From contig NIVC01000695.1 of the NCBI GenBank assembly GCA_002269645.1, forward strand, positions 1 to 64,000: a stretch of 64,000 nucleotides of DNA, given 5' to 3'. Shown here piece after piece: positions 2,987 to 61,489 of this stretch. The position numbers and the translations under genes are program-made. Numbering within the stretch: the first letter of the stretch is position 1; each line of letters opens with the position of its first letter. The DNA comes from Macrostomum lignano. Taxonomy: Eukaryota. The notes below the pieces were generated by a model. That model saw only the letters and a program-made list of their open reading frames with translations. It did no database searches and had not been told where the DNA came from.

Positions 2987-4329
2987 GATTTTTGAGCGGG
3001 TTGAGATCAAGCTAGTCATCATATGTACACAGGTGTTAAGAGTCGCCGGGGCCGAAACTCTTGCTTCAGCTCCGTTGCCAAGCGGCGCGGCCTGCTCACT
3101 GGTGGGCGCGGCTGCTGCAGACCGGTATATATATATATATATATACTCGCAGAAAACTCAAGACCTCTGCACTCAGCCATAGTCACTCGGAACATTCTTT
3201 ATTCCCAGACATTCCCAGACTAAAAAACAAAGCATGCGCGGCTATTTTCTGCTGTACATTTTCATCTCTAGCGTCTTCACCGAGTATAGGTAAGTATTTA
3301 TTATATACTTCTTTAATTTTTGTTAAAAAGAGGCATTAGTACAAAATTGTATATTATCAGAAGAGACTGTATTGGATCTTATTCCTTCTTTTTATAATTA
3401 ACCTAGCCTAGAAGAGGAAGCATTTCTATTTTTAAAAAATTATGTGACATGTTCTGCGTTCTTATTCGTGTTTAACTTTACGAATATGACAGGTCACGAC
3501 CCTCTATTTCGTGTGAACTTAACGACTAAACGTAACGGCCAAATGCATTTCGAGCTTGATGCCAACATTTATGTTCTGATTGCCGAAGTAGCTTTCTGGG
3601 CTATTATCAAGATATTTATGTTGGTAATAAGAAGAATTTTTAGCAAGGAAAGAAGAGGACGCATGCAGAGCCCAGCAGCCGCAGATTTTTTTACGTTGAA
3701 TGTGGTGAACTACATTTATAATTTCTTCAACTAGACTTTTTATTCACTTCGTTCCTTAATAAGTATGCCGAGGGAGTGTCAAGCCAACACTCCCTGGCCG
3801 CGCGTCAGCCGTTTTAAAGATTGGCTCTTGCGCCTGTATATTTTTAAATAGTAGGTTTGCAGATGTACATAGACTTAATGCTTAGGTTAGACTGTATTTT
3901 TAGTAGACTTTTTATTCACTACTTATGCGGACGGTTTTCTACATTCTTGTTTTATAATTCATGTTTTAAACTTGATTTTCATGTTGCATGTTTTATGCCT
4001 TCAGGCTCGACAATTCTCCAGTTTTTGTATTTTTTTGTTTTGAAATTTTGCTTCTTATGTAAATAATGTAATGTAAAATGTAATGTAATGTAAATAATGT
4101 AATGTAAATAATTGCTTCCTATCATGTAAAACAGATAGATAAGTTTCATGTGTGAGATAAAGGAAGGTAAAGGCAACAACACGTGGCAACAATAAATCTT
4201 ATTCAATTCAATAAGTCGGAACAGGTTGGCCACGGATACAATCAATATTCGACCAAATCCTGGTGATGACATTGATCAGTCTTTTACTTGACTTGTTGTT
4301 TCAAAGAGAATTGGAAATTTATTGTTATG

Positions 4330-15200: not shown

Positions 15201-15375
15201 AACCCAGAATTTTGTCCTATTGTTTTATTAGTAAATTTATTTACTATGTTTTATTAGTAAGCCCAGAATTAAAATGAGAATTCGATTCCTAGTCCCACTC
15301 CCTAAGAATTCTTTTCATTTTACAGGATTCGTCCCTTGCTTATTGGCCACCCCGAGGGGGGCGCTAGATTGCTAG

Positions 15376-15844
15376 TGACGCTTCTATGATTGTTTACATG
15401 ACGCTTCTATGATTTTTACATGACGCTTCTATGATTTTTACAAGACGCTTCTATGATATTTTGCATGACGCTTCTATGATTGTTTACATGACGTTTCTAT
15501 GAATTTTTACATGACGCTTTTATGATTGTTTACATGACGCTTCTATGATTGTTTACATGACGCTTATATGATTGTTTACATGACGCTTCTACGATTTTTT
15601 ACATGACGCTTCTATGATTGTTTACATGACGCTTCTATGATTGTTTACATGACGCTTCTATGATTGTTTACATGACGCTTCTATGATTGTTTACATGACG
15701 TTTCTATGATTTTTTTACATGACGCTTTTATGATTTTTACATGACGCTTCTATGATTGTTTACATGACGCTTCTATGATTGTTTACATGACGCTTCTATG
15801 ATTTTTTTACATGACGCTTCTATGATTTTTTACATGACGCCTCT
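15376..15844. repeat. 23-bp minisatellite (CATGACGCTTCTATGATTGTTTA), about 20 units
   Basis: Direct reading. Confidence 0.95.
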
Positions 15845-16176
15845 AGTCCTTTATTATTTATTTAATAAAGCTTTTAATAAAAAAATTTCACTACTAAAAT
15901 TCGAACCCAGGTCGCTGCATTAGCAGTCCAGTCTGTTCACATCTAGGCTAGATCTCATCGAATTTATAAATGAAATTGTAGCACTTATATAATTCAACAC
16001 TCACTCACGAAGCAGTTATGACATAATTAATTTCCCAGGCAAGTCAGTATTAGTCTCAATTAAAGTTGACAATATAGTTACGCAATCTAAATTATGTCTG
16101 ATGCTACGCTTCCACACTGCATTTTCAATACTGTGAGGCAATTCAAGTTAGAGTCACAATTCAGTTATGATGCAAT

Positions 16177-17070
16177 TGTAGTAGGGGGGTTTAGTTCAAG
16201 CAGTTTTGCTAAGGGCGTTTGCCAAGGTTTCCGATTCGTCGAGATAATTATTTTTAGTTTTCCGAAATCGAGAATAAGCAGTTTTGCTTTTACGCTACTG
16301 TTAGTAGTTCACCCTCGGGGAAATATCTGAAGTTGTGGGAATTCGAGTATTAGCGGGTTCCTCTATTAGTAGAAGGCTGTTTAGCCTCGGAAGAAGCATC
16401 CGTTCGGGACAAGCAGTCAAGGATCCGTTCAGGACCGTCCATCAGGACAGTGTTTATAGAGACAAAAGATCTCAATTCAAAAATAGAAAATAAGGGAGTT
16501 TCCTTTCAAAGATTTAATATAGAAACTTAAGGAAATTAAGGGTAAGTTAAGGATAAAATTCTAAAAAGGGTAAAATAGGGAGGCTAAGAAGGAGTCTACC
16601 ACTTAGTCAAACGGAGTCTACCGAGAATAGGAATATTAGTATAGTCAGTTAGATAAAATAGGGAAAGACTAAGGGAGTCTACCATTAATCTAATTAAGAA
16701 TCGGAGTCTACCGAATTGTTAACATAGGGATTAATTGTGTACTTTCTTTGCATATTTGGTTAAATAATATTTCTTTTGTTTGTTTGATCTAAAATAATCC
16801 TATATGAAATTGACTCTTGTCTCACTTATTTTAATTTAACATTAATTATAAGGGGCATTAGTCTGGTGGCAGCGACCTACCAAATAAAAGTACGTAATAG
16901 CAGATTAGTAGAGCAAGGTGACCTAGATCGTAACAACTATTCATTCAAATTAAGGTAGCTAGGAAATCTTCCAGCTTAATCTAAGCCCGGAGTCTCTCGA
17001 GCTCAGATTAATCAAATTAAAAATAAACCAACAAACCAGTAGCCTAAACCGCAGGTACCACGCTTGTCCA
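16177..17070 (+). repeat. 5' LTR of Gypsy A (894 bp)
   Basis: Near-identical to 38999-39224 plus 51640-52306, with a few differences seen by eye. Contains four GGAGTCTACC motifs. Confidence 0.92.
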
Positions 17071-18480: not shown

Positions 18481-18750
18481 ACAGTCAGCAGTCTGTAGCC
18501 TCGCAACCTGTAAATAGCAGCGATAGTTTTTCTGTAAATAGTGAATTGAATATGCATGCGCAACCATTTAATCAATCATTTAATCAACCAAATATTTATT
18601 CTCAGCACTTTTCACACGCACCACAGCAGCAGTCTTGTTCTAGTAAGCAGAAAATTAAACCACAAAATTTAAGCGAACCAACTAAAAAACAAAATTATGA
18701 TCCGTATATTACTGGCAGCATTCTAAATAAGGAGGTAGTTTATCTATTAG

Positions 18751-19403
18751 TGAAATATTTTAGAATGTATGTTATTGTTCTTCTTCTGGTCTCTCACTTC
18801 TATGGCTCCTGTTCTACTTCAAATATCAATGTGAGAGCCAAATAACTGAGGCGGCGGATTCAACTGACTTTTCCTGATGATGCAAACACTTGATGGTAAC
18901 TTACAGACCGTTGTATTTGATGGTCACAATCTCGAGATGTTTTCTCACAAAATATAATGTCTAAGGTGGAATTCCAAATAAGAAGCTCGTTCGATTTAAG
19001 TCACAAGGTGTTTCTAATTGTTCGGGCGAACCGAAGGTTCAGTCTATTGTAGAACGTGGATTGGGTGTTGGTTTAGCTTTAGTGAGTCAATTTATCAGTT
19101 TTAGCGTTTGGGTTGAGACCCTAACTGTGTTAATCAAAATTAGTCAAAAGGAGGTTGGCTAGGAGAAGGGCGAAGGAGAGAAAAGGCGAGGAGAGGCGGA
19201 GCGAGAGAAGGCGAGCTTCTTGCTTGGTTAACATGAGCTTTTATAGTACTTTTCAGTCTTGATCGCATTGGATGGTACATAACTGCTTTTCATTGGTTGA
19301 GGTTGGGGTCGTGTCCTCAGCTTTTGCTATTTGGAGCGCATTCATTGGTTAAAATACATTCAATCTGGATGGGAACTTTCTAGAGCCAAAATGTATCACT
19401 TCA
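18751..19403 (-). repeat. 3' LTR of element E (PPT-like GAAAAATAGAGCGAA immediately before it on the minus strand, 19404-19418)
   Basis: Direct repeat of 32849-33501. Confidence 0.95.
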
Positions 19404-20045: not shown

Positions 20046-20471
20046 TCAATTGAGTTCCATTTGAGTTGCAAACATCATGAGCACGGTGAAGAATTTACGA
20101 TTCTTGCTCGGCGATCTTGCTAGGCGGTCCCAAGATGATTGGGATTTGGGCGATAGACGGTGGACAATCACCGTCGTCCTCCTAGTTGTACTAGGAGCGT
20201 TAGTGCTGCTGCTGCTGCTGTGCCAGTGCTCGGCCTGCCGCTGGTGCTGTCGGTGCTGTCGTCGCAGTTGTTGTTGCGCGGGCCCGTCTGAAACGCCGGT
20301 CGCCGCGGCAGATGCAGAAGCGCCGTCGTCAGAGTCGGCAGAAGCGGCCGTGTAAGAGCCCTGGTTGCTCTGTCGGCTCTGCCGGCGTTTGTTGAACGTT
20401 GAAACGGCCCTTTTCAGGGCCACCACTTGATGTGATGCCGAAAGTGTCAGATGAGCAGACTGTGCAGTCAT
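20046..20471 (-). CDS. Element E second accessory ORF (141 aa, low complexity, basic/Gln-rich)
   Basis: ATG-initiated, GC-rich island in an otherwise T-rich 3' region. Confidence 0.4.
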   Translation of the reverse strand: MTAQSAHLTLSASHQVVALKRAVSTFNKRRQSRQSNQGSYTAASADSDDGASASAAATGVSDGPAQQQLRRQHRQHQRQAEHWHSSSSSTNAPSTTRRTTVIVHRLSPKSQSSWDRLARSPSKNRKFFTVLMMFATQMELN

Positions 20472-20902: not shown

Positions 20903-21859
20903 TTAAAATAGTGAGCGATGATGGTGAATCAAGTCATAAAAAAGAGCGTATGCCAGTCGAGCAAAATTAATATTAGGATCAGAAGGCGGAGAATGCTGAA
21001 TACGCTTGATGGGGAAGGTATGAAGAGCGGCATACTCTGGCAAGGTGTTAGGGTAGCCAACATGAGCATTTCGTATACGGTGAATATTGTATAAATATCG
21101 ACGAAGCGGAGGACAAGAGAAAGGGAAGATAGTATGGGCAACTACCGAGCGAGAATAAAAGTCGATAATTATAAAGGCAAAGTTTCTTGAACGCGTTGAG
21201 AGAATGAAAACAGCGTGGGTGAAGAAAAAATTGTGCGGATACAGACGATTTAGCGTGCGTATGATAGCGCTCTTAGTAGCACGAGGAAAAAACGGAGGAA
21301 AAATTTGATAAACATAAGGGGCGAGAGAATCGAAAGAGGTTAAATAATTTTGGAGCGTAGAAGTTAACTGTTGCGCCGAAAGATTAGCAGCATCATGGCG
21401 GAATTGTTGCCATGGGTAGCGCAGAGAGGAAAGCAACAGAGGCCAAGTGTCTTGGTTAAAGCGCATGCATGGTTGAGGGAGAGTAGAAGCAGAGAGTTGA
21501 AAGAAATCGTCGATAGATATATTAGGAGAAAAAAGAAAATGTAGGATTGGTACGAAGCTGCGGTTGAGAACGTCAGTCATAGGGGGAGAAAAGTTCTGTA
21601 TACGTGGTCGTGAGTGAGTACGACGCAGCACACCAAATAGACTAATTCGCAGAACGCGGAGCATCTTAGGATAAAAGCGATGGCAGCGGATAACATAAAA
21701 ACGAGAGAAGAAAGCGGAGGCCATGCGTAGCCGTTGGGGTTCACCAATAGTTTCAGAATAAAATATTGTTTCGGTGAACCAAGCAACAACGGTTGCGAGG
21801 CAAATAAGATCATGATGTAACTGTGGTCGGATATCCACTGGTTGCGGAAATGGATCCAT
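20903..21859 (-). CDS. Element E accessory ORF (318 aa from ATG 21859), unknown function
   Basis: Long open frame inside the LTR boundaries, on the sense strand, downstream of integrase. Confidence 0.6.
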   Translation of the reverse strand: MDPFPQPVDIRPQLHHDLICLATVVAWFTETIFYSETIGEPQRLRMASAFFSRFYVIRCHRFYPKMLRVLRISLFGVLRRTHSRPRIQNFSPPMTDVLNRSFVPILHFLFSPNISIDDFFQLSASTLPQPCMRFNQDTWPLLLSSLRYPWQQFRHDAANLSAQQLTSTLQNYLTSFDSLAPYVYQIFPPFFPRATKSAIIRTLNRLYPHNFFFTHAVFILSTRSRNFAFIIIDFYSRSVVAHTIFPFSCPPLRRYLYNIHRIRNAHVGYPNTLPEYAALHTFPIKRIQHSPPSDPNINFARLAYALFYDLIHHHRSLF

Positions 21860-22157: not shown

Positions 22158-25010
22158 TCACGACTTCTTGTTCTTCGATCTTAGGTTGTAGCCGTGCGTC
22201 TGTGGCTGACCTGGTGGCTCATCAGAGGACGTGGTTTGCAGCGCGATGGACTTGCTCAATGGCGGCCGATGGTTGTGGTGGACCTGAATGTCATCAGTTG
22301 TGAACTCAGGTAGGTGACTAGGTCCAGCGCTGAGTCCGTCTCCAGGCCATGGTTTCAGCTTGGAGGCATGTACCACGATTGGTCGTTCGCTTGGCCGGTT
22401 GACATCAGAAATCAGTGCGTTCTGATCGGAGAGCCATGCTAGTAGACGCATTGGGCCACGATAAGGATTGGAGAATTTTGTCTCCTTCGTTGCTGAGACA
22501 TCTAAATAGCATCGTGCACCGGGGCGTATGTAGCGGCTGTTGGTCTTCTTATCAGAGTTTTCAGCGCGCTGTTCAGCTGAGTTGTGCAGAAGTTACTTGG
22601 CGACTTCTCTGGCAAGCAAAATAGCTGAACAGGTCAAATTGACTGGTTTAATAACGTCCATGTATGCAGTTGTCTGGTGTTCCATGATCTGTGCGTTGGG
22701 TGGCAGGAAGTCTCGAGCGAAGAACAAGTAGAATGGTGATTCATTCATCGTTGAGTGTGCGGCGGTATTGATTGCTAGTGTCACCGCAGGTAGGAAGTCA
22801 ATCCAGAGATCTGGTTTGTCATGGACAAATGCCGTAAGAGTTTGCTTCAGTGTCTTGTGTGCGCGTTCGACGAAGTTGCTGGATGGTTGGTACACCGAGG
22901 TGTAGATCAGGTGTATTCCAAGGGCACCCATAAACTCTCGAAATTCTTGCGAGATGAATTGGGGTCCATTGTCTGAGATGATGTGTGCTGGTAGTCCTGC
23001 GAAAGCGAACACACGGTTGAAGAGGTTGTTGCAGATAGTTGCAGAAGTTGTCTCAGTTAGCGGGATAGTGAACAGGAATTTGCTAACGCCGCATTGGGCC
23101 GTGAGTATGTACTTGTAGACGTCGCGGCCGTGTGAAGCTGGTGGCAGTGGACCTACAAGGTCAATAGCCAAATGAGAGAAAACCTCGTTAAATTTGACGG
23201 CTTTGTGCAGCGGTCGTAGACGGGGTGCTGTTTTCGCTTTGTGGCAGACTTCGCAGTTGTTAACGAAATTGTAGACATCTTGTCGTAGTGTAGGCCAGTA
23301 ATAGAAGTGATTGATTTTGTCTGCTGTCTTTTGGTGACCTAGATGACCACCAAGGGCTGTCGAGTGGTTGCTTGTCAAAAGAGCTTCACGATAGCGTGTT
23401 GGTATCACGAGGCGGCTTCGTCCTTCGTCATCTTCAAAGTATAAAGTGTTTCCATCCAGAAAATAACGGGCCAGTTGTCGGCGAACATATTGTTGGTCTT
23501 TCTTGGACAGCTCGTGAGTGGGTGATTTTTCCGATAGAAGCGCTTTGATTGTAGACAGTAATGGGTCTTGATCAATGGCATCCTGCAGTCCGTTGAATGT
23601 TGACAGCGATTGTATCTGACAGACTTTGGGGATGCGTGAAAGGCAGTCCGCTACTACGTTTGATTTGCCTTTCACATAGTTGAGAGTGAAGTTGTAATCT
23701 TGTAGCGCTAGAATCCACTTCTGAAGTCGTTTTGAAATTGGCTGCTTGTCACTGAATAGACTCTTGAGTGGCTGGTGATCAGTGAAGACGTGGAACTGTT
23801 GGTAAGAAGCGTAGAGGAACACGTGTAGCTTCTTTATTGCCCAATAGATGGCGTATGCTTCGCGTTCAATCGGTGGATAGCGTCGTTCAGTTGAGCTTAG
23901 CGTCTTAGAGATGTAGGCAACCGGGCGTTGGTGGTTGCTGTCGTCTAGCTGAGAGAGTACTGCTCCAATGGCGGTATCCGAGGCATCAGTGTGCAGGAAG
24001 TACGGTTTTCGCGGATTTGGATGAACAAGTAGTATATCCGTAGAGAGAAGTTGTTTCAGCTTTTCAAAGGCTGCTTGGGCGGCGTTCGTCCAGACGAATT
24101 TGTTAGGCTTCGAAGTATTTTTGATGATACTCAGAAGTGGTTGTACTACTCGTGAGTAGCCAGCAATGTGCGTTCGGTAGAAATTTGCAAGTCCAAGAAA
24201 AGATTGTAGTTGTTTAACCGTTTGAGGCACAGGAAAGGTTTTGATTTTCTCGATAAGGCTGGGGGCTGGTCTAATGCCTTGAGCAGAAACAACAAATCCA
24301 AGATATTGTACCTCTGTTTTAGCAAAGATGCATTTTCGTAGTGAAATTCGCAATCCATGATGTCGTAACTTTTGGAAGAAGCGTTCGATTTCTTTGAGCA
24401 TGCCGGTGAAGTCTTCGGCGATGAGCATGACGTCATCCAAGTAGGCAATCTGATTTGGAGAGTCAGCTGTTAACAATGCTACAAGACGGCACATTAAGCT
24501 AGGACTGGACTTGAGTCCTTGAGGTAGTCGATTGAATTCCCAAAGTAGGCCGTTGGGTGCAATGAACGCAGTGTATTTTGTGCTTTCTGGATCGATCCGA
24601 ACTTGGTAGAAAGCATCTGCTAGGTCACAGAGTGTGTACAGTTTAGCGTTCTTTAATCGATGTAGCAAATCCGGAATCTTCGGAGGTCGGATGCTGGGAG
24701 CGCGAATTAGCTTGTTCAGCTTTCGGTAATCTGTCACGAGTCTTAGTTGTCGGCGACCTTGAGCGTCGAGCGTCTTCTTTTCCACGAGAAGACATGGACT
24801 TGAGTATTCAGATTCACTCGGACTGATGATTCCTTTTTGACGGAAGTTTTCGATGAGCTCATCAAACCGTTCTTGTAGTCCATGAGCGATTGGATAGGGT
24901 CTGGACGTGACTGGCTCAGAGTGTGGGTGTAGATGCAGGTGAGCCGTGTATTGGGTAGAGCAACCCATGTCGGTTGGCAGTAGTGCCAAGACGTCACGGT
25001 ACTTGTTCAT
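22158..25010 (-). CDS. pol: Element E RT-RNaseH-integrase. Frame break to the protease ORF at about 25030 and an in-frame TAA at 22593-22595 before the GPY/F tail
   Basis: YLDD, LHTDASD, YPPIEREA, GHLG..C..C, IDLVGP/SDNG. Reading through TAA gives KFSNPYRGPM...VVHASKLK up to 22158. Confidence 0.93.
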
Positions 25011-25026
25011 TAGAGTAACTAATTGT

Positions 25027-28000
25027 TCACTCTGCTCGGTTGAGGTGCTGGTTGGCTTGTTTGAGTTGAGTACGGATCATGTCAGTCGTAGGTACTTCTT
25101 GTTGCAGCGTGCGGAGACTGTTGATTTGAGCTGCTGGGCGCACGATGTTGTAGTCAGACATGTTGGCTAGATTTCCAATGACTTGTTGAGGATGCAAGGT
25201 TTGCGTTGTCAGCGACGGGTTGGCAATTTCCACAGTGATAGTTTGTCCGTCCGGGTTGACAGAAACAAGGCAAGTTGGTATCATCAACTGGTGTTTCTGG
25301 ATCGTGTGGTCCTTAGGGACGAACAGGACAGGAATCGTTGGCTCATGTCGAGAAGAGAGTTTCAGCGTGACTTGGTGCTTTGTCTGTGGTGGTAACTCTA
25401 GCTTGTTTTGCATCACCGCAGAGGTTTCTTGCAACTGTTGGATGGAGTTGAGCATCGCAAATTGCTCATTGCCAAGCTTAGCTGTCGCTTTTGAGTAGTC
25501 AAATTGTAGTGGTATTCCTAGTGACTTAAAGGTTTCTACTCCTAAGAGCAAATCATAGTCAGCGTCGGGGGTGTCAAGCACAAAGGCCGATATCTTGTGG
25601 TTGCGTCCATCGATTTCGAGATCGAAAGTGGCCTTTTTGTTGAGGTTTAGTTGTTGTCCTCCTGCACAAATGGCGTTCATATTGGTGTCTTGTAGTGGTA
25701 CTCGAAGCTTCTTGGCGAATGCCGGTGAGATGCAGGAGATCGAGGCGCCGCTGTCAATGAGGGCGGTGCATCTGTGTCGAGTATGCGGTGTGTTGCGGCA
25801 CCACAGGTTGATCATAGTTGCTGTTGTTAGATGCTTCAAAACAAAGGCGTATGAGTAGTTTGCTGGCCATTTTGGAACTTTAGGTTCTGGCGGTGGTCTC
25901 CGTGGTGGCGGAAGGGTGGCACGAAGTTCAATCGTTTCGATGGGTGCCGAGGGTGTTGGCGCTTGTCTCGGTGGTATCAGTTGCTGTTGTTGGGAGTAGT
26001 CGTTTCGTGATTCCACTCGAGTTGGAGTTCGTTGTTGCCGCAGCACTTGTATAGTGTGCGTTCTGCCGTAACGGATGGTGCTGGCAACGCATAGTCGGCC
26101 AAGATTGCACACGAAGATAATAACGGCAATGTAGACAATAACAGCTGCTGTTAATACGAACTTTTCTTGATAGTTTGCGACTAGTCGATCCCAGTTGAAT
26201 ATCGACGAAGACCATAGATTGAGGAGAGCTAGTTTTGAGTCCAGGAATGCACTGTCAGCATGTGCTGTTCTATGTCGTGTTCGATTCGGAAGTTTGAAAA
26301 CCGTAATCAGAAAATCACGAGTTTGCATGAACTGGTGCATTAGGTCGGTCACCGTTATCGGACTACGAAGTGAAGTATAATTGATATCTCCCATAGGTTT
26401 GAAGATGCTTTCGGAGACTGAAGTTTGCAAATCGGACAACCGATAGTTTTCATCGGATCTGACATTAGCAGTTGTGGGTTCAAACCTCGAAAAATTTAGT
26501 GTGGTCTTGAATAGCATCGATTGTTTAGGCAGGTAGTAGTACGGGAAGGCGTCGCATGAGATTAGAGCTGGAGTAGCTGTGGAGACAATACGAGTCGTTG
26601 TGTCCAAAAATCCAAGAACAGTATAATTTTGTAGGCGGAATTCCAGTGGGGGACGCGTGAAGCATTGGTTCGTCTTATACTTTGGTTGGACAAAGCGAAA
26701 TTGATGTAGAGGTTTGCACTGGTAGACGAAGAGATATCCAGCAATGGATCTAGCTCGCAAGAAAGGATCATTTAATAAGAGTCGACCAGCGAGCGTTGGT
26801 TGTGTGTAGTATAACTGTCGGTTGTACTTGAGATTAGTTGCGTACATCATGCATTGAGTAGTTGCAAGCTGCCTCTGTACTTGGAGAAGGTCTTTTCGAG
26901 CTTTACTAGCAGCTCCTTGTAGTTGTCCAGCAAGAAGTTCAGCGGATGCGAACGTTGATGAAAGTTGCGCAGTAGAGTTGCCTGAAGGGGCTGCGATGGT
27001 TTTGTCATCTGTGCTTCGCTTGTTGCGTGGTAGTAGTAGGAGATCCGGTTGACCACCTTGTGGTTCGTGATATGGAACTGCTAGATTCGTATGAATAGAA
27101 GCCAGTTGTGGATCTGTTGTTGTCGCTGGTGAGTTTGTCGTGAAGGTTGAGGTTGCAGACTTTGCTGGTGCACTGGTTGTGCTGCTAGAGGTTGAGGTTG
27201 TTGGCGGTAAAGTGGTGGTGGTACTAGGTTGTATCGTCACTTTTGTAGTCGTCGTAGTTGAATCTGCTGTCGTTGTTGCTGCTGAGGTTGTAGCATTGGT
27301 GGTTGTTGAAGTTGTCGGTGTTACGGTTGTTGTAGGTATTGCTGTCGTTGTAGTCGGTGGCATTGTCGTCGTAGCTGGTGGTGTTGTCATTGTAGTCGGT
27401 GGTGTTGTCGTTGTAGCTGGTGGTGTTGTCGTTGTAGCTGGTGGTGTTGTCGTTGTAGCTGGTGGTGTTGTCGTTGTCAAAATTGTAGTTGTTGGTGGTG
27501 ATTTTGTAGTAGTTAGTATCGTAGTTGTTGGCGTCATTGTTGTAGAAGTGCTTGACGTCGGTGGATGATCAGGTCGTTCTTGTCGTAAAGGTTGCGGCGG
27601 TAGGAATTGTCGTGACTGTGTTGTCGTAGTGGAAGGATGTTGAGTCGTCGATTGCTGAACTGGTAATATAGTTGGTGGCGTTGGTAGTATGGCTGGTGGT
27701 GAACGACGTTTTTGTCTCGAAGAAGTGGTTTCTTCGCTAATTTGAGGTTTTGGAGTAGCTTCTTCTAATGGGCTTCGTAAGGTGGCGAGAAATTCTGCTT
27801 CTTTGTTGTCGAGGATGTCTACGTATAGACCTTGTGTTGAAAGGTACAACGTCTTACGGACGCCAGTGCAGGTGAGAGTGTGAGTCGACGGCACTGGGTT
27901 GAAGGTTAGTCCCAATGTTTGATCATTAGTTAAGAACAAGCCGGAGTTTAAGTTGCCTTCAAGAGTACGAAATGGTTTTAGAGGACAATCAGCGAGCGGT

Positions 28001-28860
28001 GGAGGTGTCAAAATGAGATTTAGATGTCTTGGTCCTTTTACGTCAATTTGGTAGATTGCTTCAGTTTCCAAAGGATCCCAGGGGGATGTTAGTATCGGCA
28101 AAGGTAGGTTGAAAGCTCGCATTTCTTGTGCAGTTGTTTTAATTGTACAAAATTTGTCGGCGAGTTTGCAGTTGTTCATTGGGAAGGACAAATATTCCAT
28201 TTTTTGATCTGCTGTTGAGTAGGCTGGGATTCCGGTAATCACTGTTGTTACTATTTGTTCTGAATTGGAACCGGGAGTGCAACGCACAGCATTTTGCGTG
28301 TTGAATGTCGATTGCAGGCGTTGGATAGACTGAGTTGACGCAGTCTTTAACACTAATGATCCATCAGGCGATAGCTTTGTTCGTGCCCAGTTTTCACAAT
28401 CAGCTTGAGTGACTGGTTGCGGTTCCAACTCTACCAGGGCGGATGTCCAGGTTCTTATCACCGCCTTATCACATCTGATAGTGATTTTCTCGCGGAAACA
28501 GACAGTCATAACCAGAGAACTGGTTTCCACGTTCGTTGTGTAAAGTTCCAGTTTCAACGGGAGTGTCGGCGTTGTTTGGTGTTTGAGCTGTTCACAACGG
28601 ATCTCATGTGGTATCGTGAAAATTCGTGGGATCTGGTTGTACGGACAGACCATTGGTGTGTCAATGAAGCCCTCGTGGGATTGTCTCTCGATCGACGGTG
28701 GAGTTGACGTCGTTACCGGAGTAGCGTTGGCTAGTGCGAGGAGTGAAGTTGCTAGGCACAGGAGAAAAAGTGCCAGTAGTGATCGGCGAATTCCAACGGA
28801 AGCTTTCACGGTTTTCTCGCGGTTTTTGTTGCTGGTCGGTGGAGTGTAGGCGTTAGTCAA
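25027..28860 (-). CDS. env: Element E envelope-protease fusion ORF: signal peptide, class III (gB-like) glycoprotein with mucin insert, TM, Pro-rich tail, aspartic protease
   Basis: One 1277-aa open frame containing: hydrophobic LLALFLLCLATSLLALANA; Cys-patterned ectodomain; RQKRR and RNKR sites; Thr-rich region; TM FVLTAAVIVYIAVIIFVCNL; ALIDSGAS...DLLLG protease motifs. Confidence 0.85.
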   Translation of the reverse strand: MTNAYTPPTSNKNREKTVKASVGIRRSLLALFLLCLATSLLALANATPVTTSTPPSIERQSHEGFIDTPMVCPYNQIPRIFTIPHEIRCEQLKHQTTPTLPLKLELYTTNVETSSLVMTVCFREKITIRCDKAVIRTWTSALVELEPQPVTQADCENWARTKLSPDGSLVLKTASTQSIQRLQSTFNTQNAVRCTPGSNSEQIVTTVITGIPAYSTADQKMEYLSFPMNNCKLADKFCTIKTTAQEMRAFNLPLPILTSPWDPLETEAIYQIDVKGPRHLNLILTPPPLADCPLKPFRTLEGNLNSGLFLTNDQTLGLTFNPVPSTHTLTCTGVRKTLYLSTQGLYVDILDNKEAEFLATLRSPLEEATPKPQISEETTSSRQKRRSPPAILPTPPTILPVQQSTTQHPSTTTTQSRQFLPPQPLRQERPDHPPTSSTSTTMTPTTTILTTTKSPPTTTILTTTTPPATTTTPPATTTTPPATTTTPPTTMTTPPATTTMPPTTTTAIPTTTVTPTTSTTTNATTSAATTTADSTTTTTKVTIQPSTTTTLPPTTSTSSSTTSAPAKSATSTFTTNSPATTTDPQLASIHTNLAVPYHEPQGGQPDLLLLPRNKRSTDDKTIAAPSGNSTAQLSSTFASAELLAGQLQGAASKARKDLLQVQRQLATTQCMMYATNLKYNRQLYYTQPTLAGRLLLNDPFLRARSIAGYLFVYQCKPLHQFRFVQPKYKTNQCFTRPPLEFRLQNYTVLGFLDTTTRIVSTATPALISCDAFPYYYLPKQSMLFKTTLNFSRFEPTTANVRSDENYRLSDLQTSVSESIFKPMGDINYTSLRSPITVTDLMHQFMQTRDFLITVFKLPNRTRHRTAHADSAFLDSKLALLNLWSSSIFNWDRLVANYQEKFVLTAAVIVYIAVIIFVCNLGRLCVASTIRYGRTHTIQVLRQQRTPTRVESRNDYSQQQQLIPPRQAPTPSAPIETIELRATLPPPRRPPPEPKVPKWPANYSYAFVLKHLTTATMINLWCRNTPHTRHRCTALIDSGASISCISPAFAKKLRVPLQDTNMNAICAGGQQLNLNKKATFDLEIDGRNHKISAFVLDTPDADYDLLLGVETFKSLGIPLQFDYSKATAKLGNEQFAMLNSIQQLQETSAVMQNKLELPPQTKHQVTLKLSSRHEPTIPVLFVPKDHTIQKHQLMIPTCLVSVNPDGQTITVEIANPSLTTQTLHPQQVIGNLANMSDYNIVRPAAQINSLRTLQQEVPTTDMIRTQLKQANQHLNRAE

Positions 28861-30625
28861 CCGTACAAAGGCGAATAGAGTTGATAGTCGCAGCGGCAGT
28901 AGTCGGTTTTTTGAGTAAAGATTTCAGCTGCTTAGCGTCTCCAGAGTAGCGAATTTCGTTTCCAAAAGTCGGTGGGCGTTCATCAACTGTAGCAATGTGC
29001 ATCAGTTGGGCAGACTCGGGAGCGTCGTGAGTCGTCCATCCAATCTGCGGCTGTTGATTCCATCCTGGGTGGGACGTTTCAAGGTCCTGAGCAGTGATGG
29101 CGCGGATCGGTGGATATTGTTGTTGCGCAAATCTCGGAGGTTGTCGTTGATTGTTGGCGCCGTTGTATCGAGGCGGATAGCGTTGCTGAGGCCGGTTTCC
29201 ATAGTCTTGACGGGGTGGAAATCGTGATTGTTGTGTCGCCGGTGGACCGTAGCCTTGTGTACGTTGGGCTCGTAGTCGGCACTGGTTAATAGAGTGTCCT
29301 GGTTTCCGGCAATAGTTACAGGTCAATCGTGGCGGTCCCTGCTGGTAACGATCCCGCGGGGCATCAGAGCCGTATTGAGCTGTGTTCCTTCGATCGCTTG
29401 AGTTAGGTCGGAAGGGACGAGGTTGTTGGTCATTCCTTCGACGACAGTCGGCGGCATAGTGTCCAGGTCGACCGCAATGATAACAAGTGGGCTTCTGTTG
29501 TATATTAGCGATAGGTGGCTTGGTTTGTGTTTGCAGGGAGGCAACCACCTGCTGATTGGCTTCCTTCGTCGTTTTTTCTAAGGTAGTTAAACGCTCTGTG
29601 AGAGCTTTCAAGTCAGTGCCATCAGAGTCCATGGTGGAGTCGCGGATTTGTTCGGCGCGGATGGCCTTGTTGATTAGCGTACTTTCCGTGGTGATATTTT
29701 GCTTCAAGAGTTCTCGTTTGATGTAGGGTAGAGCATTGTTAATAGTCGTAGCCATCAGGGTAGCAAGGAAGTCTCGGTTGCGCTGGTCGATGACAGCTTG
29801 ATTCGCGGGTGGTGTTTCCGGACCGGCACCTTCCGGAAATTCTTCCGGTATTTCCGGCATAGCTGACCTGAGCTTTCGACGAATGTCGGTGAAATAAGAC
29901 AGGAACGGTTCGCCGTACTGTTGTTTCCGGGTTGTTGCATTATGCAACGTTAGAGCCGAGCCAATGGTTACTTCCCGAAGGCGTTGAGATAGTGCCTCAA
30001 TGGTGGCTGGATAAGAGGCTTGGACTGCGGCAGAGAGGCGACTGTATTCGAGTTTAAGAAGGTCATTCAGTAGTCGCGGGAAGAGCCGAATCTTTGCGTT
30101 CTCCGATAGTCCAAAGGAGCGTGTGATCAAGTCGAACTCTTCAGTGAAGGAACGGAAGTCATGCATTTGGTCGATTCCTTTCAGGGATTGACGAATTTCA
30201 GCAAGAGCAGTAGCTGAGACGGGATGGTTTGATTGCAATTGCAGACTGCGGTTCATAACATCAGTAAGTTCACGGACAGCATTTGTGGCTGCAGCATCAA
30301 CATGGGGAGCGCCGTCCGGATCAGCCATGTCTAGAGTAGATTCTTCAGCAATAGCGTTTGGGGCTTGTTGAACTGTTTCGTCCGCGTCTGTTAGAATGGA
30401 ACTGGGTGCTGGCGAGTGTGCACGGTTGTGTTCAAAATGATCCGCAAGAGGATTATTAAACTCAACGTTATCTGGTACAAACAGGTTAGGTACTGGTGAA
30501 CTATTTCGTGGGGGCTGTTCACCTACTTGGCGGTCAGAAGTTTCTAAATTTTGTTCAGGAGGTCTGTTAAGATTTGAGCTTTGAAAAACTGGTCCGGAAC
30601 GTAAATCTCGGACAGGTGTGGTCAT
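28853..30625 (-). CDS. gag: Element E gag (capsid + two CCHC knuckles)
   Basis: First ATG at 30625 (MTTPVRDLRS). Capsid-like QQYGEPFLSYFTDIRRK. Knuckles CYHCGRPGHYAADC and CNYCRKPGHSINQC. Confidence 0.92.
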   Translation of the reverse strand: MTTPVRDLRSGPVFQSSNLNRPPEQNLETSDRQVGEQPPRNSSPVPNLFVPDNVEFNNPLADHFEHNRAHSPAPSSILTDADETVQQAPNAIAEESTLDMADPDGAPHVDAAATNAVRELTDVMNRSLQLQSNHPVSATALAEIRQSLKGIDQMHDFRSFTEEFDLITRSFGLSENAKIRLFPRLLNDLLKLEYSRLSAAVQASYPATIEALSQRLREVTIGSALTLHNATTRKQQYGEPFLSYFTDIRRKLRSAMPEIPEEFPEGAGPETPPANQAVIDQRNRDFLATLMATTINNALPYIKRELLKQNITTESTLINKAIRAEQIRDSTMDSDGTDLKALTERLTTLEKTTKEANQQVVASLQTQTKPPIANIQQKPTCYHCGRPGHYAADCRRRNDQQPRPFRPNSSDRRNTAQYGSDAPRDRYQQGPPRLTCNYCRKPGHSINQCRLRAQRTQGYGPPATQQSRFPPRQDYGNRPQQRYPPRYNGANNQRQPPRFAQQQYPPIRAITAQDLETSHPGWNQQPQIGWTTHDAPESAQLMHIATVDERPPTFGNEIRYSGDAKQLKSLLKKPTTAAATINSIRLCTVD

Positions 30626-32833
30626 TAACAAGAATTCAATCAATAATTTCAAGGCAACGATAGCACAAAAATGTAACTGATAGCAAAGTAAAGAGAGAGT
30701 GTCAAGTTCAAAGTGAGCAAACGGCAATGGCTTTCAGGGTTGCGGTTGGCGGACTGGCTGGGGAAGGGAGAAAAAGAGAGACTGTGTGATTTTTTGAACT
30801 GTGATCTGCAACGAGCTTTGAAAATCGAAGTAATTTTGAATTAAACTGCCTTTTGATCGGTTCTGAAACTTTGAATTTTGAAATTTTGAACTGGGTGAAA
30901 TTTTGAATTGAACTGCCTTTTTGATCGGTTCTGAAACTTTTATTGAAACTGAATTTGATAAAGGAGCTCCTGAATGTTGGACTAGACGGACATCAGTGGT
31001 GGCCAATAAAATCGAATTTGTATCATTGAAATAGGCAGTTTTCTTTTTCTTGAAGTCGGCAGTTTATTCTTTTTTTTGAAGTCGGCAGTTTTCTTCTGAG
31101 AATTCGTTCTGGCTTTTGAATTTCTAATCTGAATTTTTGAGCTATCTGACGAGTTTCAGCTAGGGGGTTGATTTCATAATTTTAAGCAAACGTAGAGTAA
31201 TGTTTTTGTAGTTTTGTAAATTTGCTATTTTTAATTTTTGAAAATTTTATAATTTTTATTGATCGGACTGATCATTTTGCAACTTTAACATGATAAGAGC
31301 AGTACGGATTATACGAAATGGACTATAAGCAATGGTATTATTTTTTGTGTTTTCAAGTTTTATTATTTTTTGGTGATCGAATGACCATTTTTAAGCTTTG
31401 TCATAAGCGAAGGGGATATGGGGTTACCAAAAAGCTCGCGCCACTGGCAGTAGAGGGATGGGAGAAAATTTGAGGTTATTTTGGTCTTAATCCATCATGC
31501 GAAACGGGGGGGGGAGCTAGGGACAGATCCCAGGGGAGGTCGGTTGTCAGTGATTGCAGAGAAAACATCGCTGGGCCGGTGATGAAGTGGCAGGAGGGAG
31601 CTGGCCTGGACAGTTTGGTTAGGAAAAATATTTTTTGTGGGAGATGAAGTTGAGTGATGGTTTTAATCAAGAAAAGAGGTCTCTCTGGGAGGTTGAGTAG
31701 GCACACAAAGTCTGATGTGGGCAGTTTGTTTAAGATGAATATTTATTGGAGGAAACTGGAGTTGATTAAACACACAAGAAATTCCCAGCATCCTGAATGA
31801 TCCATAGAAGGCAACTGCCAGAATCAGCAATCCGAAAAAAAAACTTGGGTCGATAAGGATTTGATGGATGGGGCTCGTGGGGTTTGCAAACAGTGAGTTT
31901 GGAGTGTTTAATCAAGAAAAATAATGGAAGGCTAGGCAAGCGGTCTACGAAAATAAGAAAAGTTTTCCGGATGAAGCACGCAGGTTCGGCAAACAATTGG
32001 TTGGGACTTTAATCAAGGAAAATGATGAATGGTCAGGCAAGCAGCCTGTCGGATAAGCGAAAAAAAATTTTTTTGTTGACAGCAAGAAATTGGTGGCTCC
32101 AGAGTTTGATTAATATTTGCTGTAGTGACTTTGTTTGAATAGCTCGTCAGGTTTTTTGCGTTTTCGTCTTTCTTTCGGGCGCTTAACGGCGCAGAGAATC
32201 TGAGATAAGCCAGTTTTCTAGATGTGGCCACACACTGGGAAAAACCGAGGAGGAAATCGAATGGCTCAGTCGCTTTGGAGAGTTTCAAATATATATGAAG
32301 AAATCCAGAGCAGACTTTGCTATTCTGTGGAAAAGCAGTGAAGGAAGAGGCGTCCAACATTAAATAAACTTGAACAATTGATGATGCCGCGGTCTTTGAA
32401 AAATCGAAGCTTTGAAGCTTGAACAATTGAGGATCCGAATAACTGAATTGAATTTCTGCATTGAAGCTTTGAGGCTTGAGAATAAGAACTCGATATCAGA
32501 CGTTCGACGACGTTTCTTGAATTGAATTGAAGTTGAAATTGTTCCGGAACGATAATAAATTGACTTTCATGGATCCTTTGAATTTGAAACAACTTGAATC
32601 AGGTCTCAGTGCACTGGACAAAACTTAAAACCGATTTGAATTCTGAATTTGAATTTGAGAGCTCGTGATTTACGATTCATTCTTCGAATTTGTATTACTG
32701 ACAGTCTCGAATGCGCAAAATGGAGGGGAGGGGAAGCCAGTCCAACCGTTCGCACCCATCAGCCACGCCTATAGCTGTCTACCCCATGCAGGGCATGGCG
32801 GCTATTGTGGTGAAAAGCATCGGAGGAAAAGTA

Positions 32834-32847
32834 CGGTCAGGGAACCA
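32834..32847 (-). promoter_or_regulatory. PBS of element E (tRNA-Glu CUC-like)
   Basis: TGGTTCCCTGACCG on the minus strand, 1 nt after the LTR, is complementary to a tRNA-Glu 3' end (CGGUCAGGGAACCA). Confidence 0.85.
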
Positions 32848-32848
32848 G

Positions 32849-33501
32849 TGAAATATTTTAGAATGTATGTTATTGTTCTTCTTCTGGTCTCTCACTTCTA
32901 TGGCTCCTGTTCTACTTCAAATATCAATGTGAGAGCCAAATAACTGAGGCGGCGGATTCAACTGACTTTTCCTGATGATGCAAACACTTGATGGTAACTT
33001 ACAGACCGTTGTATTTGATGGTCACAATCTCGAGATGTTTTCTCACAAAATATAATGTCTAAGGTGGAATTCCAAATAAGAAGCTCGTTCGATTTAAGTC
33101 ACAAGGTGTTTCTAATTGTTCGGGCGAACCGAAGGTTCAGTCTATTGTAGAACGTGGATTGGGTGTTGGTTTAGCTTTAGTGAGTCAATTTATCAGTTTT
33201 AGCGTTTGGGTTGAGACCCTAACTGTGTTAATCAAAATTAGTCAAAAGGAGGTTGGCTAGGAGAAGGGCGAAGGAGAGAAAAGGCGAGGAGAGGCGGAGC
33301 GAGAGAAGGCGAGCTTCTTGCTTGGTTAACATGAGCTTTTATAGTACTTTTCAGTCTTGATCGCATTGGATGGTACATAACTGCTTTTCATTGGTTGAGG
33401 TTGGGGTCGTGTCCTCAGCTTTTGCTATTTGGAGCGCATTCATTGGTTAAAATACATTCAATCTGGATGGGAACTTTCTAGAGCCAAAATGTATCACTTC
33501 A
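32849..33501 (-). repeat. 5' LTR of element E
   Basis: Direct repeat of 18751-19403. Confidence 0.95.
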
Positions 33502-33505
33502 TTAG

Positions 33506-36500
33506 ACACTGGCAGCAATAGGAACATTCTAGGACGTGAAACCTGGAAACATCTGTTCACTGGCAAGAATAGTCACTTAATTAAGCAGTGGAACAATAGA
33601 ATCGTGTCATTCACGGAAGAGCCGATTCCAATTAAAGGTTCCGTAGTTATTAAAGCAACATTCGGTGATTTCGAAGAAGAAATCGAGTTTCTCTTATGTG
33701 ACGCAGAAGTAGACAATGTGATAGGCGTGACGTTTGTCCAACAATATTGTAATGCTATTGACTTTGAAGCAGGAATGCTAACTATGAAGCAGGGAACTAG
33801 AATTCCACTACGTTCGACGAGAGCTAAGCCTCAGGTTAAGAGAATCTATGTTGCAGAAAAGACGACAGTTCCAGCTAATAGTTCAGGGTTAGTCAAGGTG
33901 AGATTAGCAACAGGTAGTGAATCCAATTTCGGAGTGCCGTCAGTTGTTGAGCCGCTCAGATCAGGATTAAGAACTAGAGCAGCGAAGGTAACTGTAGTAC
34001 CAAGTCTAGTAACTTTGAGGCAAGGAGAAGCTTATTTAGAGGTCAATAACACCAGCTCACAGGAAGCTAAAGTTCCAGCATCAACACTAGTAGGGATGGC
34101 TAAACTGCTTTTAGCTAGCGAATTAAACTATCTTAAAGATCAACCAGAGAAAGAGCAGTTATGCCAAAATAGAGACACGCAGTTTTGCGAAAACATCAGA
34201 CAGGTGCAAGACAAATCAGAAGATTGGATTAGTGAGATTAACATAGGAAATGAACTGACTCAGGAACAGAGACAAAATGTGATCGAGGTCGTCAAGGAAC
34301 ATTCAGCAGCTTTCTCGCAGCACGAGTTAGACTTAGGCCGAACGCATTTAGTCACTCATGAGATTATCTTGAAGGACAACAACCCAGTTCAGATACCAGC
34401 TAGAAAAATTCCACCTCATTGGATTAAGGAGGTAGATGAGCAGTTAGATCTCATGTTGGCTAGAGGCATCATTAGGCCTAGTTACTCGCAGTACTCGACT
34501 CCATTAGTCATAGTACCTAAAAAAGACGGTTCGCTGAGATTAGTTAACGACTATCGAGCGCTAAATAACAAATCGGAGTACTTTCCGTATCCAAAAACTA
34601 ATATCAATGAAACATTTTCATGTCTCCATGGAGCCAGTCAATTCTCTACGTTAGATCTATTTTCGGTATATTATCAGATAGCTCTTAGGGAGGAGGATAA
34701 GTGCAAAACTAGCTTTCCAACTTTACATCGAGGCTCGTTTGAGTACGAAGTTTTGCCAATGGGATTGCAAGGAGCTCCAGGAACTTTTCAAAGGTGCATG
34801 AACTTAGTTCTTAAAGACATTGCGCAAAAGTTCGCCATAGCTTACTTAGATGATGTGATAGTTTATAGTGCAGACTTTGAATCTCACTTAGAACACCTGA
34901 AGGAAGTGCTCAAAAGACTAATCCAAGCTAATATGAAACTGAAAGCTAAGAAATGTCACCTTTTCAAATCAGAACTGCAATATTTAGGACACGTCATTGG
35001 CAAATCAGGAATTAAGAGAGACGCGTCAAAGTTAGGAGCGATTAGGAACTGGCCGAAACCTAAATCTGTGACAGAGCTTCGAAGTTTTCTCGGACTCTGT
35101 AATTATTATCGAAAGTTCGTTAGAGATTTTGCCGAGGTAGCAGCACCACTCTGTGAGCTAACGAAGAAGAACATCAAATGTATCCAGGACAAATGGACCA
35201 GGATTCATGATGAATGCTTCGAGCTGTTGAAGGAACGGATGTGTTCCGAAGAAGTGCTTGCTTACCCAGAGTTCAATACAGACCCCCAAGTTTATTTTGT
35301 GTTAGACACTGATGCATCAGATGTCAGAATTGGGGCGGTCTTAAATCAAGTACAGAGCGACGGAGTTGAGAAACCGATCGCGTATTATAGTCGGAAAATG
35401 AGGCAGTCAGAAAGTAGATATCCGATTACGAGGAAGGAGCTTCTAGCGATTGTTGACTCGCTGAAGTACTTCAGGTTTTACCTCGTAGGGAAACGTTTTA
35501 AGGTGTGCACTGATCACAATGCCCTAACCTGGTTGCTTCGCCAGACCGAGCAGACAGGCATTTTAGGTCGTTGGATCGAGAGACTTAGCGAATTTGATTT
35601 TGAGATTGAGCATAGAAGTGGCCCTAAGCATGTGAATGCTGATGCTCTATCCAGGATCCCGGATCCTCAACAGGATGAGTCATCCCCATATGCCAGGTCG
35701 CTTAGCTGTAGGGCAACTGTGAACACAGACCCAGCATCAGCTGTTACTGTGAGCTCAGGCAATTCCGCGCAAGCCGAAACCTGTAGTCTGCACAGTGGAG
35801 TTACGTCATGCTGTTCGCCGCAGAATATGGCGCCGAACCGACACAATACTCCGAGTTTTAGTAGCAGGTTGCTAAGCAAAAGGCAAGAACAGGAGCCTAA
35901 GGAAAGGACAGGTGTTTGCAATGCACTGCTGAGTGATTACCTTCGTAGCCCAGTGCGTCGCGAAAATTTGGTCGCAGCTCAGCTAGCCGACCCCGCACTA
36001 AGCTATGTCAGGAATCTGATTGAATCTGACTTGCCGAAACCGAACTTTCAAGAAAGACTAGAATTGTCTCATGAGATTAGAAATCTGCTAGGTTACTTTG
36101 AACTCTTCAGGATAGAAGACGGTGTTCTCAGAATAGACTTAAATTTAGGGCGGACCGAATCTAAAGTGGTGTTGCCCAAGTCTTTGGATGGTGAAGTTTT
36201 TCACGAATTCCACGATTCACCGTTAGCAGGTCATCTAGGAAGAGATAAAACTTATCAGCGAGTTAAAGAAAGATTTTGGAGAGTAGGATTAGCTACAGCA
36301 GTCGAAAAGTACGTCGCCAAGTGCAAATCCTGTTTAGAAAGTAAATCAAGGAAGCGATGCAAGGCACCAGTGCAGAATTTTCCTATTGTCGAACCGTTTT
36401 CACGCCTTCACATTGATTTGATAGGTCCGATTAGTCAGACTAGCAAATCTGGTAACAAATATGTCTTGTCAGTTATTGACAACACTAGCAAATTTCCATT

Positions 36501-39259: not shown

Positions 39260-40680
39260 ATGGCGGCGAACAACAACCAAGATAGATCACGGCCCCCGAA
39301 CAATAACAGGGGAAGTAGTAATGTGGTACCAGTAGTGTTCAACACTGCGGCAGAAACGAGTCAAATTGATTTTCTAAAGTGGCTCGCGACCAACTTCCAA
39401 GGGTCGGCCCGGGCTACACTCACCAAGAAGTTGACCCATGAAGTCGGCTTCCTCGTGTTTCCGGCTACTCCGCGTGACCACCAGTTGTTCCTGCGTGGGC
39501 CTCTGCGTGAGCCCCAGTTCGCGGGGGGCCGGTGACGAGGCGCTTACCAAAGGCTCGACCGGACCCAAGAGCTAGGCCTGCTGCGCCACAGCGACCAATG
39601 ACCCGAGCGGTCCACTCGTTCGTGGTGCGCGGCGTGCCTCCGGAGGTCGATGCCAGCGACTTCAAGCGGCACCTGCAAGAAAGCGCTGGTCTTAATATCA
39701 TATCAGCTAGCCGTATCACTGCTAGGCGAGACAACAAGCCTACTAACCTAATCAGAATCTTTGTCCGTAACAAACAGACAGTGGACGCCTGTCTAGCTAC
39801 AGGAATCGTCACGGATTTTACAACATACCAGTGCGAGCCGAACAAGACCGCAGCTCCGGCACGAGCACCGCAGTGCCAAAACTGCCAGCGCTTCGGTCAC
39901 CACGCCCAGAGGTGCAAGGCGGCCAAGCGTTGTCGAATCTGCGCGGCCGAGCACCACTGGCGAGACTGCGACAGCCAGGACGCGGTGAAATGTGCCAACT
40001 GCAAGGAGCCGCACAGAGCAAACTACCGCAACTGCCAGGTGGCGATCGATTGCCACAATGCGGCCCAAAGGCGTGCGGCTGCCTACGCAGCGGGCGCCCG
40101 AGAAGCCGCGGCAGAAACAGACAGTTCGACCGCTCCACCACCTATTGCAGCAGCAGCGGCGGTAGTAGCATCAGCAGCATCAGCAGAGGCAGCGGCAGCA
40201 GCGGCGCCACCCGCCCCCGCCCCCGCACTGGCACCAGCTCCGGCAGCAGCACCGAGATGGGTCGACGCCGCAGCACGGGCGACAACGGCGACAGGGGGCA
40301 ACGATTCGTTTTGGCTCACCGGCCCTGGCCTCCCTAGCCGAAAGCGCCCTGTGCGCAAATCGACCGACTCGGAGACGCAGACAACTGCGCCGGATGAATC
40401 CTCCAATAATGACACGCCGCCAATTGCCAGAGAAGTCTCCCAGCTTCAGGGACTGGTGAGTGGGTTCCTTCCCCTCTTGGTCCAGGCACTTGTAGAGGTG
40501 CTGTCGACTCTCTGGCAGAGCCCGGCTGAACGGCCGCCTACTACCGAAAGCTCCCGTCAAACGGTGCAAGATGTAGTAGGTAGGGTTCTGGCCCGGATCC
40601 TCGAAGGCGAATCGAACAGTCACCAGGGTCTTGGTCAGCTGCTTGGCGCCTCCCGGCGACAGGCGGATGGCCAGACCTAG
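39260..40680 (+). pseudogene. LINE copy 1 ORF1 (RRM-like region + three CCHC knuckles), truncated upstream of SYAEMA, frameshift near 39525
   Basis: CQNCQRFGHHAQRC, CRICAAEHHWRDC, CANCKEPHRANYRNC. Aligns to the C-terminal part of ORF 45170-47974. Confidence 0.88.
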
Positions 40681-40688
40681 AGCAATAA

Positions 40689-47974: not shown

Positions 47975-47979
47975 ACTAA

Positions 47980-61404: not shown

Positions 61405-61489
61405 TTCCGTTCTCTTTTGTAGAGAATCACAGTAAAAATGAAGTAAGCTCTGTTTCATATAGGTAAAGGTTTTACAGGTAAAGGTAGTA

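Follow-up and report, generated by a model that had tools for sequence, protein, structure and literature searches.

A likely HSV/gB-type class III envelope gene between gag and pol of a Ty3/gypsy element in the flatworm Macrostomum lignano

We analysed a 64,000-nucleotide stretch of the Macrostomum lignano genome (assembly GCA_002269645.1, contig NIVC01000695.1, positions 1 to 64,000; hereafter the window), which carries, on its minus strand, a 14.75-kb long terminal repeat (LTR) retroelement with an envelope gene, env. We put at roughly 85% the probability that this is a class III env of the herpes simplex virus glycoprotein B (HSV/gB) type, that it belongs to a gag-env-pol Ty3/gypsy element (an "errantivirus" in the broad sense), and that its product is made within a polyprotein and acts in membrane fusion. 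The text of Chary and Hayashi (eLife 2026, PMC13524379) describes HSV/gB-type env in Ty3/gypsy elements as widespread across animals; since the class is already published there, the element is a new family of a known kind and our main claim confirms rather than discovers. Its value is that of a young element, with identical LTRs, in a laboratory flatworm, usable for a question named in that text: how a gB-type errantivirus Env functions without herpesvirus partners, and whether it carries elements from cell to cell.

Env is encoded in one stop-free frame, an open reading frame (ORF) spanning 28923-25027 (-), within which the env part runs from a signal sequence (from 28788) to the end of a transmembrane helix (26101). 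An earlier sequence-only reading of this DNA had quoted several ectodomain motifs; all are present in this single frame, and the span that it gave, 26100-28780, takes in everything from the signal through to that helix. The product has a type I topology (signal, ectodomain, C-terminal transmembrane helix) by a hydropathy scan alone, in which the signal, at 1.71, is barely over threshold and the signal of P0002, a Macrostomum relative described below, is not called. The ectodomain contains several N-glycosylation sequons and 14 Cys. Of these Cys, 13 are conserved in 90% or more of the homologues aligned, whereas the one in "RCD" (28473) occurs in only 1 of 12. The first Met of the frame is residue 91, downstream of the signal, and because no in-frame ATG precedes the signal, Env cannot start by itself in its frame.

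Structure searches identify the fold as that of gB. The Env model, an AlphaFold monomer built from an alignment of 31 sequences, has a mean predicted local distance difference test (pLDDT) score of 63.5, with values mostly of 70-95 except in a Thr/Pro-rich spacer and the last 100 residues. It shows the features of class III proteins: a PH-like domain with an inserted beta-hairpin fusion domain, then a long central helix (residues 581-627), then a crown formed from both chain ends. Foldseek returned 106 PDB matches at E<=0.001, the best 36 of which are all herpesvirus gB (top E 6.9e-12), and a Foldseek-independent structure search of 48,161 chains placed gB at ranks 1-6 (Z 7.1-10.0), with baculovirus gp64 not among its best 50 matches. 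In a further structure comparison 50 of the 50 matches listed were gB. The class III fusogen that the sequence-only reading had proposed is thus what the predicted fold resembles. The crown aligned to gB domain IV draws on both chain ends (model residues 9-748). In the N half, model residues 31-318 align to gB domains I-II, to vesiculovirus and lyssavirus G, and to PH domains; the half matches human cytomegalovirus (HCMV) gB at Z 8.6 (root-mean-square deviation (rmsd) 6.4, 211 residues aligned) and gB domains I-II at Z 8.1-8.6, and Bourbon virus GP (Z 5.6) and many PH domains also appear in the Foldseek-independent search. Two hairpin tips lie at about residues 72-80 and 126-139.

Among viral models, the top match is Nyavirus G (Foldseek E 3.4e-19), and nyamivirus and related glycoproteins align to the Env model over its whole length. 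By predicted fold, the nyamivirus/Monjiviricetes glycoproteins are the nearest viral relatives. Uncharacterized entomopoxvirus proteins (BFVD W6JPK9, Q9YVZ3 and A0A916KPE9) also match the model, at E 1.2e-16 to 1.8e-10, which suggests class III-like glycoproteins in those poxviruses.

Family profiles, which use no structure prediction, also find gB. Profile A4 matched Epstein-Barr virus (EBV) gB in the PDB at E 5.9e-11 and another family profile matched gB at E 1.8e-5; the N-terminal Cys pair and the helix-crown region are both in register in these alignments, in keeping with the gB-like pattern that had been read from the C-terminal ectodomain. Profile A3 still matches gB (E 1.2e-12); it is dominated by pol columns, and A4 was therefore built. 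P0004, P0005, P0015 and P0032 were excluded from alignments A2-A4 as chimeric or too long (P0032 is a repeat protein and was treated as a false match), and P0020, P0022 and P0030 were excluded from A3 and A4 for poor alignment. With the Env sequence alone, 6 of 7 PDB matches were HCMV gB (E 0.064-0.4), and the Pfam family Monjiviricetes_fusion (PF24664) matched the C half at E 0.0028, its 16.1 bits lying under the gathering cutoff of 27 bits that 8 of 30 homologues pass.

A further profile drew on 20 distant homologues and left out the window protein and its three nearest relatives, though the window sequence was present when the alignment was computed; it scored the N half at 55.6 bits and the C half at 120.0 bits. 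None of 500 shuffles per half reached the real score (best 5.4 bits for N and 4.8 for C). Because the homologues were recruited mostly via the C half, the C-half score is partly circular and only the N-half score is independent; at the level of sequence, the likeness of Env to the family is beyond chance. The profile version of a homologue search with the C half found 3 of 7999 candidates. An ESM Atlas search with the N half (best score 0.88, low recognition) had PF24664 in its second row and is a lead only. Two further results with the N half were taken as chance: the only PDB matches, two unrelated glucanases at E ~0.9, and one Pfam match, DUF7734, at E 0.073.

The sequence-only reading had also drawn a parallel between the N-terminal part and the Cys spacing of rhabdovirus G fusion domains, a spacing that fits vesicular stomatitis virus G. 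In structure the parallel stands: the N half aligns to Chandipura G 34-254 (model residues 34-303; Z 6.5, rmsd 6.3, 203 residues aligned) and to rabies G 31-247 (Z 5.8). In sequence it gains little backing. Rhabdovirus G and gp64 are absent from the 19 and 24 PDB sequences matched at E<=10 by the family profiles, and the Pfam family Rhabdo_glycop has no match at E<=1 to either half of the window protein and a weak one (E 0.12) to 1 of 10 family members. The rhabdovirus likeness thus appears to be one of structure only, and in structure the N half matches gB no less closely.

The element that carries env belongs to the Ty3/gypsy group (Metaviridae): protease, reverse transcriptase (RT), RNase H and integrase follow one another in that order, pol is Ty3-like, and the LTRs are accompanied by a target-site duplication and a primer-binding site (PBS), which we take to be tRNA-Glu-like. 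Ty3 Gag-Pol is the best solved relative of its pol (E 1.2e-100), which agrees with the Gypsy lineage that the sequence-only reading had named as the carrier. The full gene order is gag, env, protease (in the same frame as env), RT, RNase H and integrase. The two LTRs are identical, so the family has been recently active. A gB-type env between gag and pol of a Ty3/gypsy element is what defines the GAG-ENV-POL HSV/gB-type errantiviruses in the text of PMC13524379, and the element has it. The uninterrupted ORFs of that group are lacking in the copy as assembled, which has three breaks, all outside env: frame changes at ~28860 (gag/env, where the two frames share a 70-nt overlap around an A-run) and ~25040 (protease/RT), and a plain in-frame stop within integrase at 22595-22593. 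Broken ORFs count against an intact copy, not against membership of the gag-env-pol errantivirus family.

The closest proteins to the element are two Macrostomum lignano records, P0004 and P0002. P0002 (BOX15_Mlig009479g2) carries Gag, Env, protease, RT, RNase H and integrase in one 2852-aa chain that is collinear with the element and has no interruption at any of the three break positions; it is 39% identical in the N half of Env, 55% in the C half and 75% in RT, and represents a different family. P0004, a gene model of chimeric make-up, shares 93-98% identity with the element across the main stretches of gag, env start and protease, and 79-97% across the element's remaining stretches. It is continuous across all three places, and at the gag/env and protease/RT junctions its matches to the window abut, with no intron-sized gap. 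Because this near-identical protein reads through the same places, the breaks are, judging by sequence, most likely defects or assembly errors of the copy. We surveyed the layout of 38 proteins, 36 of them with an env match; 5 of the 38 were drawn from a pol search, which favours fused forms. A downstream protease motif was found in 15 of the 36 env-bearing homologues, and 8 have both an upstream zinc knuckle and a downstream protease motif in the same chain, 4 of these with RT as well, giving the whole gag-env-protease-RT layout.

Two other members of the protein set deserve mention in their own right. P0035, an env-protease-RT-integrase chain of the same clade (RT 61% identical), is annotated to a metagenome-assembled genome of a Kangiellaceae bacterium and is probably a retroelement of animal origin that was binned as bacterial. 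P0015 joins an env fragment to weak dUTPase and Upf1-like helicase (AAA_11) matches; helicase-carrying elements have reportedly been seen in nematodes.

On our preferred reading, the element would make one polyprotein. The internal signal would thread Env into the endoplasmic reticulum, where signal peptidase would free Gag on the cytosolic side; the transmembrane helix would stop transfer, leaving protease-Pol in the cytosol, tethered to the tail of Env, until cleavage by the protease sets it free. The presumably O-glycosylated Thr/Pro spacer would be cut at one end or at both by furin-type proteases, and so opened or removed, while the two halves would stay joined by disulfides from the first two ectodomain Cys to the Cys of the central helix and crown. 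The halves of gB are disulfide-linked in this pairing. We infer fusion activity for Env: trimers on budding particles would refold, insert their two hairpin loops into the target membrane and fuse, so that the element would pass between cells, plausibly from soma to germline.

Several observations weigh against this reading. The Env model is a monomer with a predicted template modelling (pTM) score of 0.46; its whole-chain template modelling (TM) scores are 0.13-0.30 and its rmsd to full gB is 12-40 Å, so that the match to gB holds domain by domain. Low whole-chain TM-scores are expected of a hinged monomer with a long disordered insert. AlphaFold run on the single Env sequence gave an unusable model (pLDDT 33), the putative fusion loops at the hairpin tips are moderately hydrophobic at most, and a word-indexed search for homologues of the C half confirmed none of its 2295 candidates. 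In the layout survey, 21 of the 36 env-bearing homologues lack a downstream protease motif; many of them are fragments and several resemble stand-alone env. The five examples that came via the pol search are fused and were drawn with a bias to such forms, and P0002, P0004 and P0005 may each represent a gene model and not one exon. A transmission route is, in the text of PMC13524379, known for no element outside Drosophila.

An alternative that we consider unlikely, but the strongest of those weighed, is that Env has a class III fold and is not, or is no longer, a working fusogen: the element would spread intracellularly, with Env as a membrane anchor, an assembly spacer or a passenger. Herpesvirus gB depends on partner glycoproteins, according to the text of PMC13524379, and the ectodomain of Env is interrupted by a very long spacer, as this alternative would allow. 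It fits poorly with an env frame that is open throughout in a copy whose three breaks all lie elsewhere, with the retention of 13 of the 14 Cys, the basic sites, the signal and the transmembrane helix at 17-43% identity to homologues, and with the recent activity of the family.

Slightly less probable still is separate expression of Env and Gag, with the Gag:Env:Pol ratio set by programmed recoding or by splicing at the gag/env and protease/RT frame changes. Ratio control of this type is common in Ty3/gypsy elements, the gag/env frame overlap surrounds an A-run, and several homologues are env-only chains. However, P0004 and P0002 are both unbroken at all three places, the junctions in P0004 leave no room for an intron, and the third break is a simple stop codon in integrase.

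Env is, as modelled, one class III protein rather than a hybrid of G and gB, because the fold searches and the structure-free family profiles agree on gB. A chimera whose N half is of the rhabdovirus G type and whose C half is of the herpes gB type, with the join at the spacer, is very improbable and not needed. The G alignments of the N half, the solely gB matches of the C half among the solved structures listed and the concentration of the sequence match to gB in the C half might point to it. Against it, the N half matches gB as well as rhabdovirus G (Z 8.6 and 6.5), the crown is made from both chain ends, the alignments to nyamivirus and related glycoproteins span the full model, and distant homologues have both halves, joined by a short linker.

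A Thr/Pro spacer of 225 aa, flanked by two furin-type sites, divides the ectodomain at the position of the cleavage linker of gB; EBV gB has there a short Ser/Pro/Thr-rich linker with a basic site. The sequence-only reading mentions neither this spacer nor the place of env between gag and protease. P0002 also has a Thr-rich spacer between two basic sites (163 aa, 33% Thr). The distance between flanking anchors is 298 and 250 residues in the two Macrostomum proteins versus 25-85 in the other 22 of 24 rows. Long spacers also occur beyond Macrostomum, since P0020, outside the 24-row count, likewise carries a long insert in which some runs are rich in Thr. We found no gB-type env with a long mucin-like spacer in the literature searched, where figures and supplements could still show such spacers; "mucin", "polyprotein", "fused" and "linker" have 0 occurrences in the main text of PMC13524379, figures aside. 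From the sequence comparison, the long two-site spacer appears to be the sole unusual feature of Env and a lineage-specific addition. A tentative extension, which we think rather more likely to fail than to hold, is that the Macrostomum gag-env-pol clade has a class III fusogen with a mucin-like shield: an O-glycosylated spacer of 160-225 aa, excised by furin at both ends and serving as a brake or immune shield, in a protein that works without gH/gL-type partners and is cut from a single Gag-Env-Pol chain whose protease starts out anchored to the Env tail. If this is true, germline infection by gB-type errantiviruses could be tested directly in a transgenic-ready flatworm.

The element shares with the HSV/gB-type errantiviruses, as the text of PMC13524379 describes them, a Ty3/gypsy pol, an env between gag and pol, a flatworm host, LTRs, a tRNA PBS, and a gB-type ectodomain between a signal or transmembrane segment and a transmembrane helix. 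The same text reports the GAG-ENV-POL order in Nematoda, Bryozoa and Platyhelminthes, favours an ancient env-pol association over recent capture, and calls the entry mechanism unknown; the sequence-only reading had proposed that a viral fusogen was captured by a Gypsy lineage. It lists one M. lignano element, Platyhelminthes_Rhabditophora_Mlig_errantivirus_2 (16 copies), and 93 POL and 51 ENV hits in ENV-POL order in the M. lignano genome. That element is described with an 863-nt LTR, compared with 653 nt here, and another PBS; because of these differences ours is probably a distinct family, one that may be among the M. lignano POL and ENV hits of PMC13524379. The passages on M. lignano LTR families in PMC12801592 say nothing of env.

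Herpesvirus gB and Env have in common the central helix, the crown domain, the pattern of terminal Cys and the position of a cleavage linker; identity is 7-16%, the N half of Env is shorter and its spacer several times longer, and the element has no genes for the gH/gL partners that herpesviruses have. The Monjiviricetes glycoproteins differ in their ~10% identity to Env, which also has a retroelement context and a long spacer. Nematode elements are said to have one continuous gag-env-pro-pol ORF with an env resembling Nyamiviridae glycoproteins, both in line with the single chain of P0002 and with the Nyavirus G match of the Env model. The nematode endogenous retroviruses of Sacco et al. 2022 (doi 10.1099/jgv.0.001739) are cited in the text of PMC13524379 for their flipped env/pol order, and they have nematode rather than flatworm hosts. 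Chuvirus-like glycoproteins of mosquito elements (Anakin), as described in the text of PMC7642597, likewise place a class III glycoprotein inside an LTR retroelement, there a BEL/Pao element in insects, as opposed to Ty3/gypsy here.

Table 1. Positions of the parts of the env-bearing element within the window.
Feature	Position	Strand	Basis or remark
5' LTR, 653 nt, TG...CA	32849..33501	-	identical to 18751-19403
PBS	32834..32847	-	1 nt after 5' LTR; read from sequence
gag ORF, two CCHC zinc knuckles	28853..30733	-	Pfam zf-CCHC E 1.9e-8; 37% identical to Gag part of P0002
Env internal signal: basic residues, hydrophobic core, A-x-A	28723..28788	-	hydropathy peak; putative cleavage site
Ectodomain N half: N-terminal crown strands, PH-like domain with inserted beta-hairpin fusion domain; 10 Cys	27760..28662	-	model pLDDT mostly 70-94
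VCFREK motif	28503-28486	-	env frame
PVTQADC motif	28416-28396	-	env frame
Furin-type site 1, RQKRR	27703..27717	-	sequence; putative cleavage
Mucin-like spacer, 225 aa, 38% Thr, 18% Pro, partly 21-nt tandem repeats	27028..27702	-	composition; pLDDT <50
Furin-type site 2, RNKR	27016..27027	-	sequence; just ahead of segment aligned to HCMV gB
Long central helix, gB domain III-like, 47 aa	26803..26943	-	model helix 581-627; profile alignment to gB
Beta-rich crown, gB domain IV-like	26440..26802	-	PRV (pseudorabies virus) gB domain IV: Z 9.7, rmsd 4.0, 165/175 residues aligned
QPTLAG motif	26802-26785	-	env frame
QCKPL motif	26721-26707	-	env frame
CFTRPP motif	26664-26647	-	env frame
GFLDT motif	26613-26599	-	env frame
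LISC motif	26565-26554	-	env frame
Env transmembrane helix	26101..26157	-	hydropathy 2.73
Aspartyl protease, env frame, ~108 aa past transmembrane helix	25525..25776	-	Pfam gag-asp_proteas E 9.2e-8; IDSGA 25758-25744
RT, RNase H, integrase	22158..25076	-	Pfam; Ty3 Gag-Pol E 1.2e-100
3' LTR	18751..19403	-	4-nt target-site duplication at 18747-18750 and 33502-33505

The env-bearing element is nested in a Ty3/gypsy element on the plus strand, inserted exactly at the start of the latter's protease active-site motif; the pol of that host element then resumes and runs to 36942. The inserted element has a 5' leader of 2.1 kb and a 3' region of 2.7 kb. Between integrase and the 3' LTR lies a 318-aa ORF with an ATG (20903-21859, -), which has no Pfam match at E<=1, and an antisense 92-aa ORF in the 3' region (20077-20355, +) encodes one hydrophobic helix followed by a Cys/Arg-rich run, possibly a small membrane protein. 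No tRNA gene was found within the 64-kb window. Long repeats near the element (16391-16690 and 51627-51926, 100% identical; 40445-43329 and 47739-50615, 79-88%; 35675-36244 and 56440-57014, 73-78%) point to more nested or tandem retroelements. Minisatellite arrays with 23-nt and 16-nt units occupy 15367-15856, 61466-62757 and 2766-3011.

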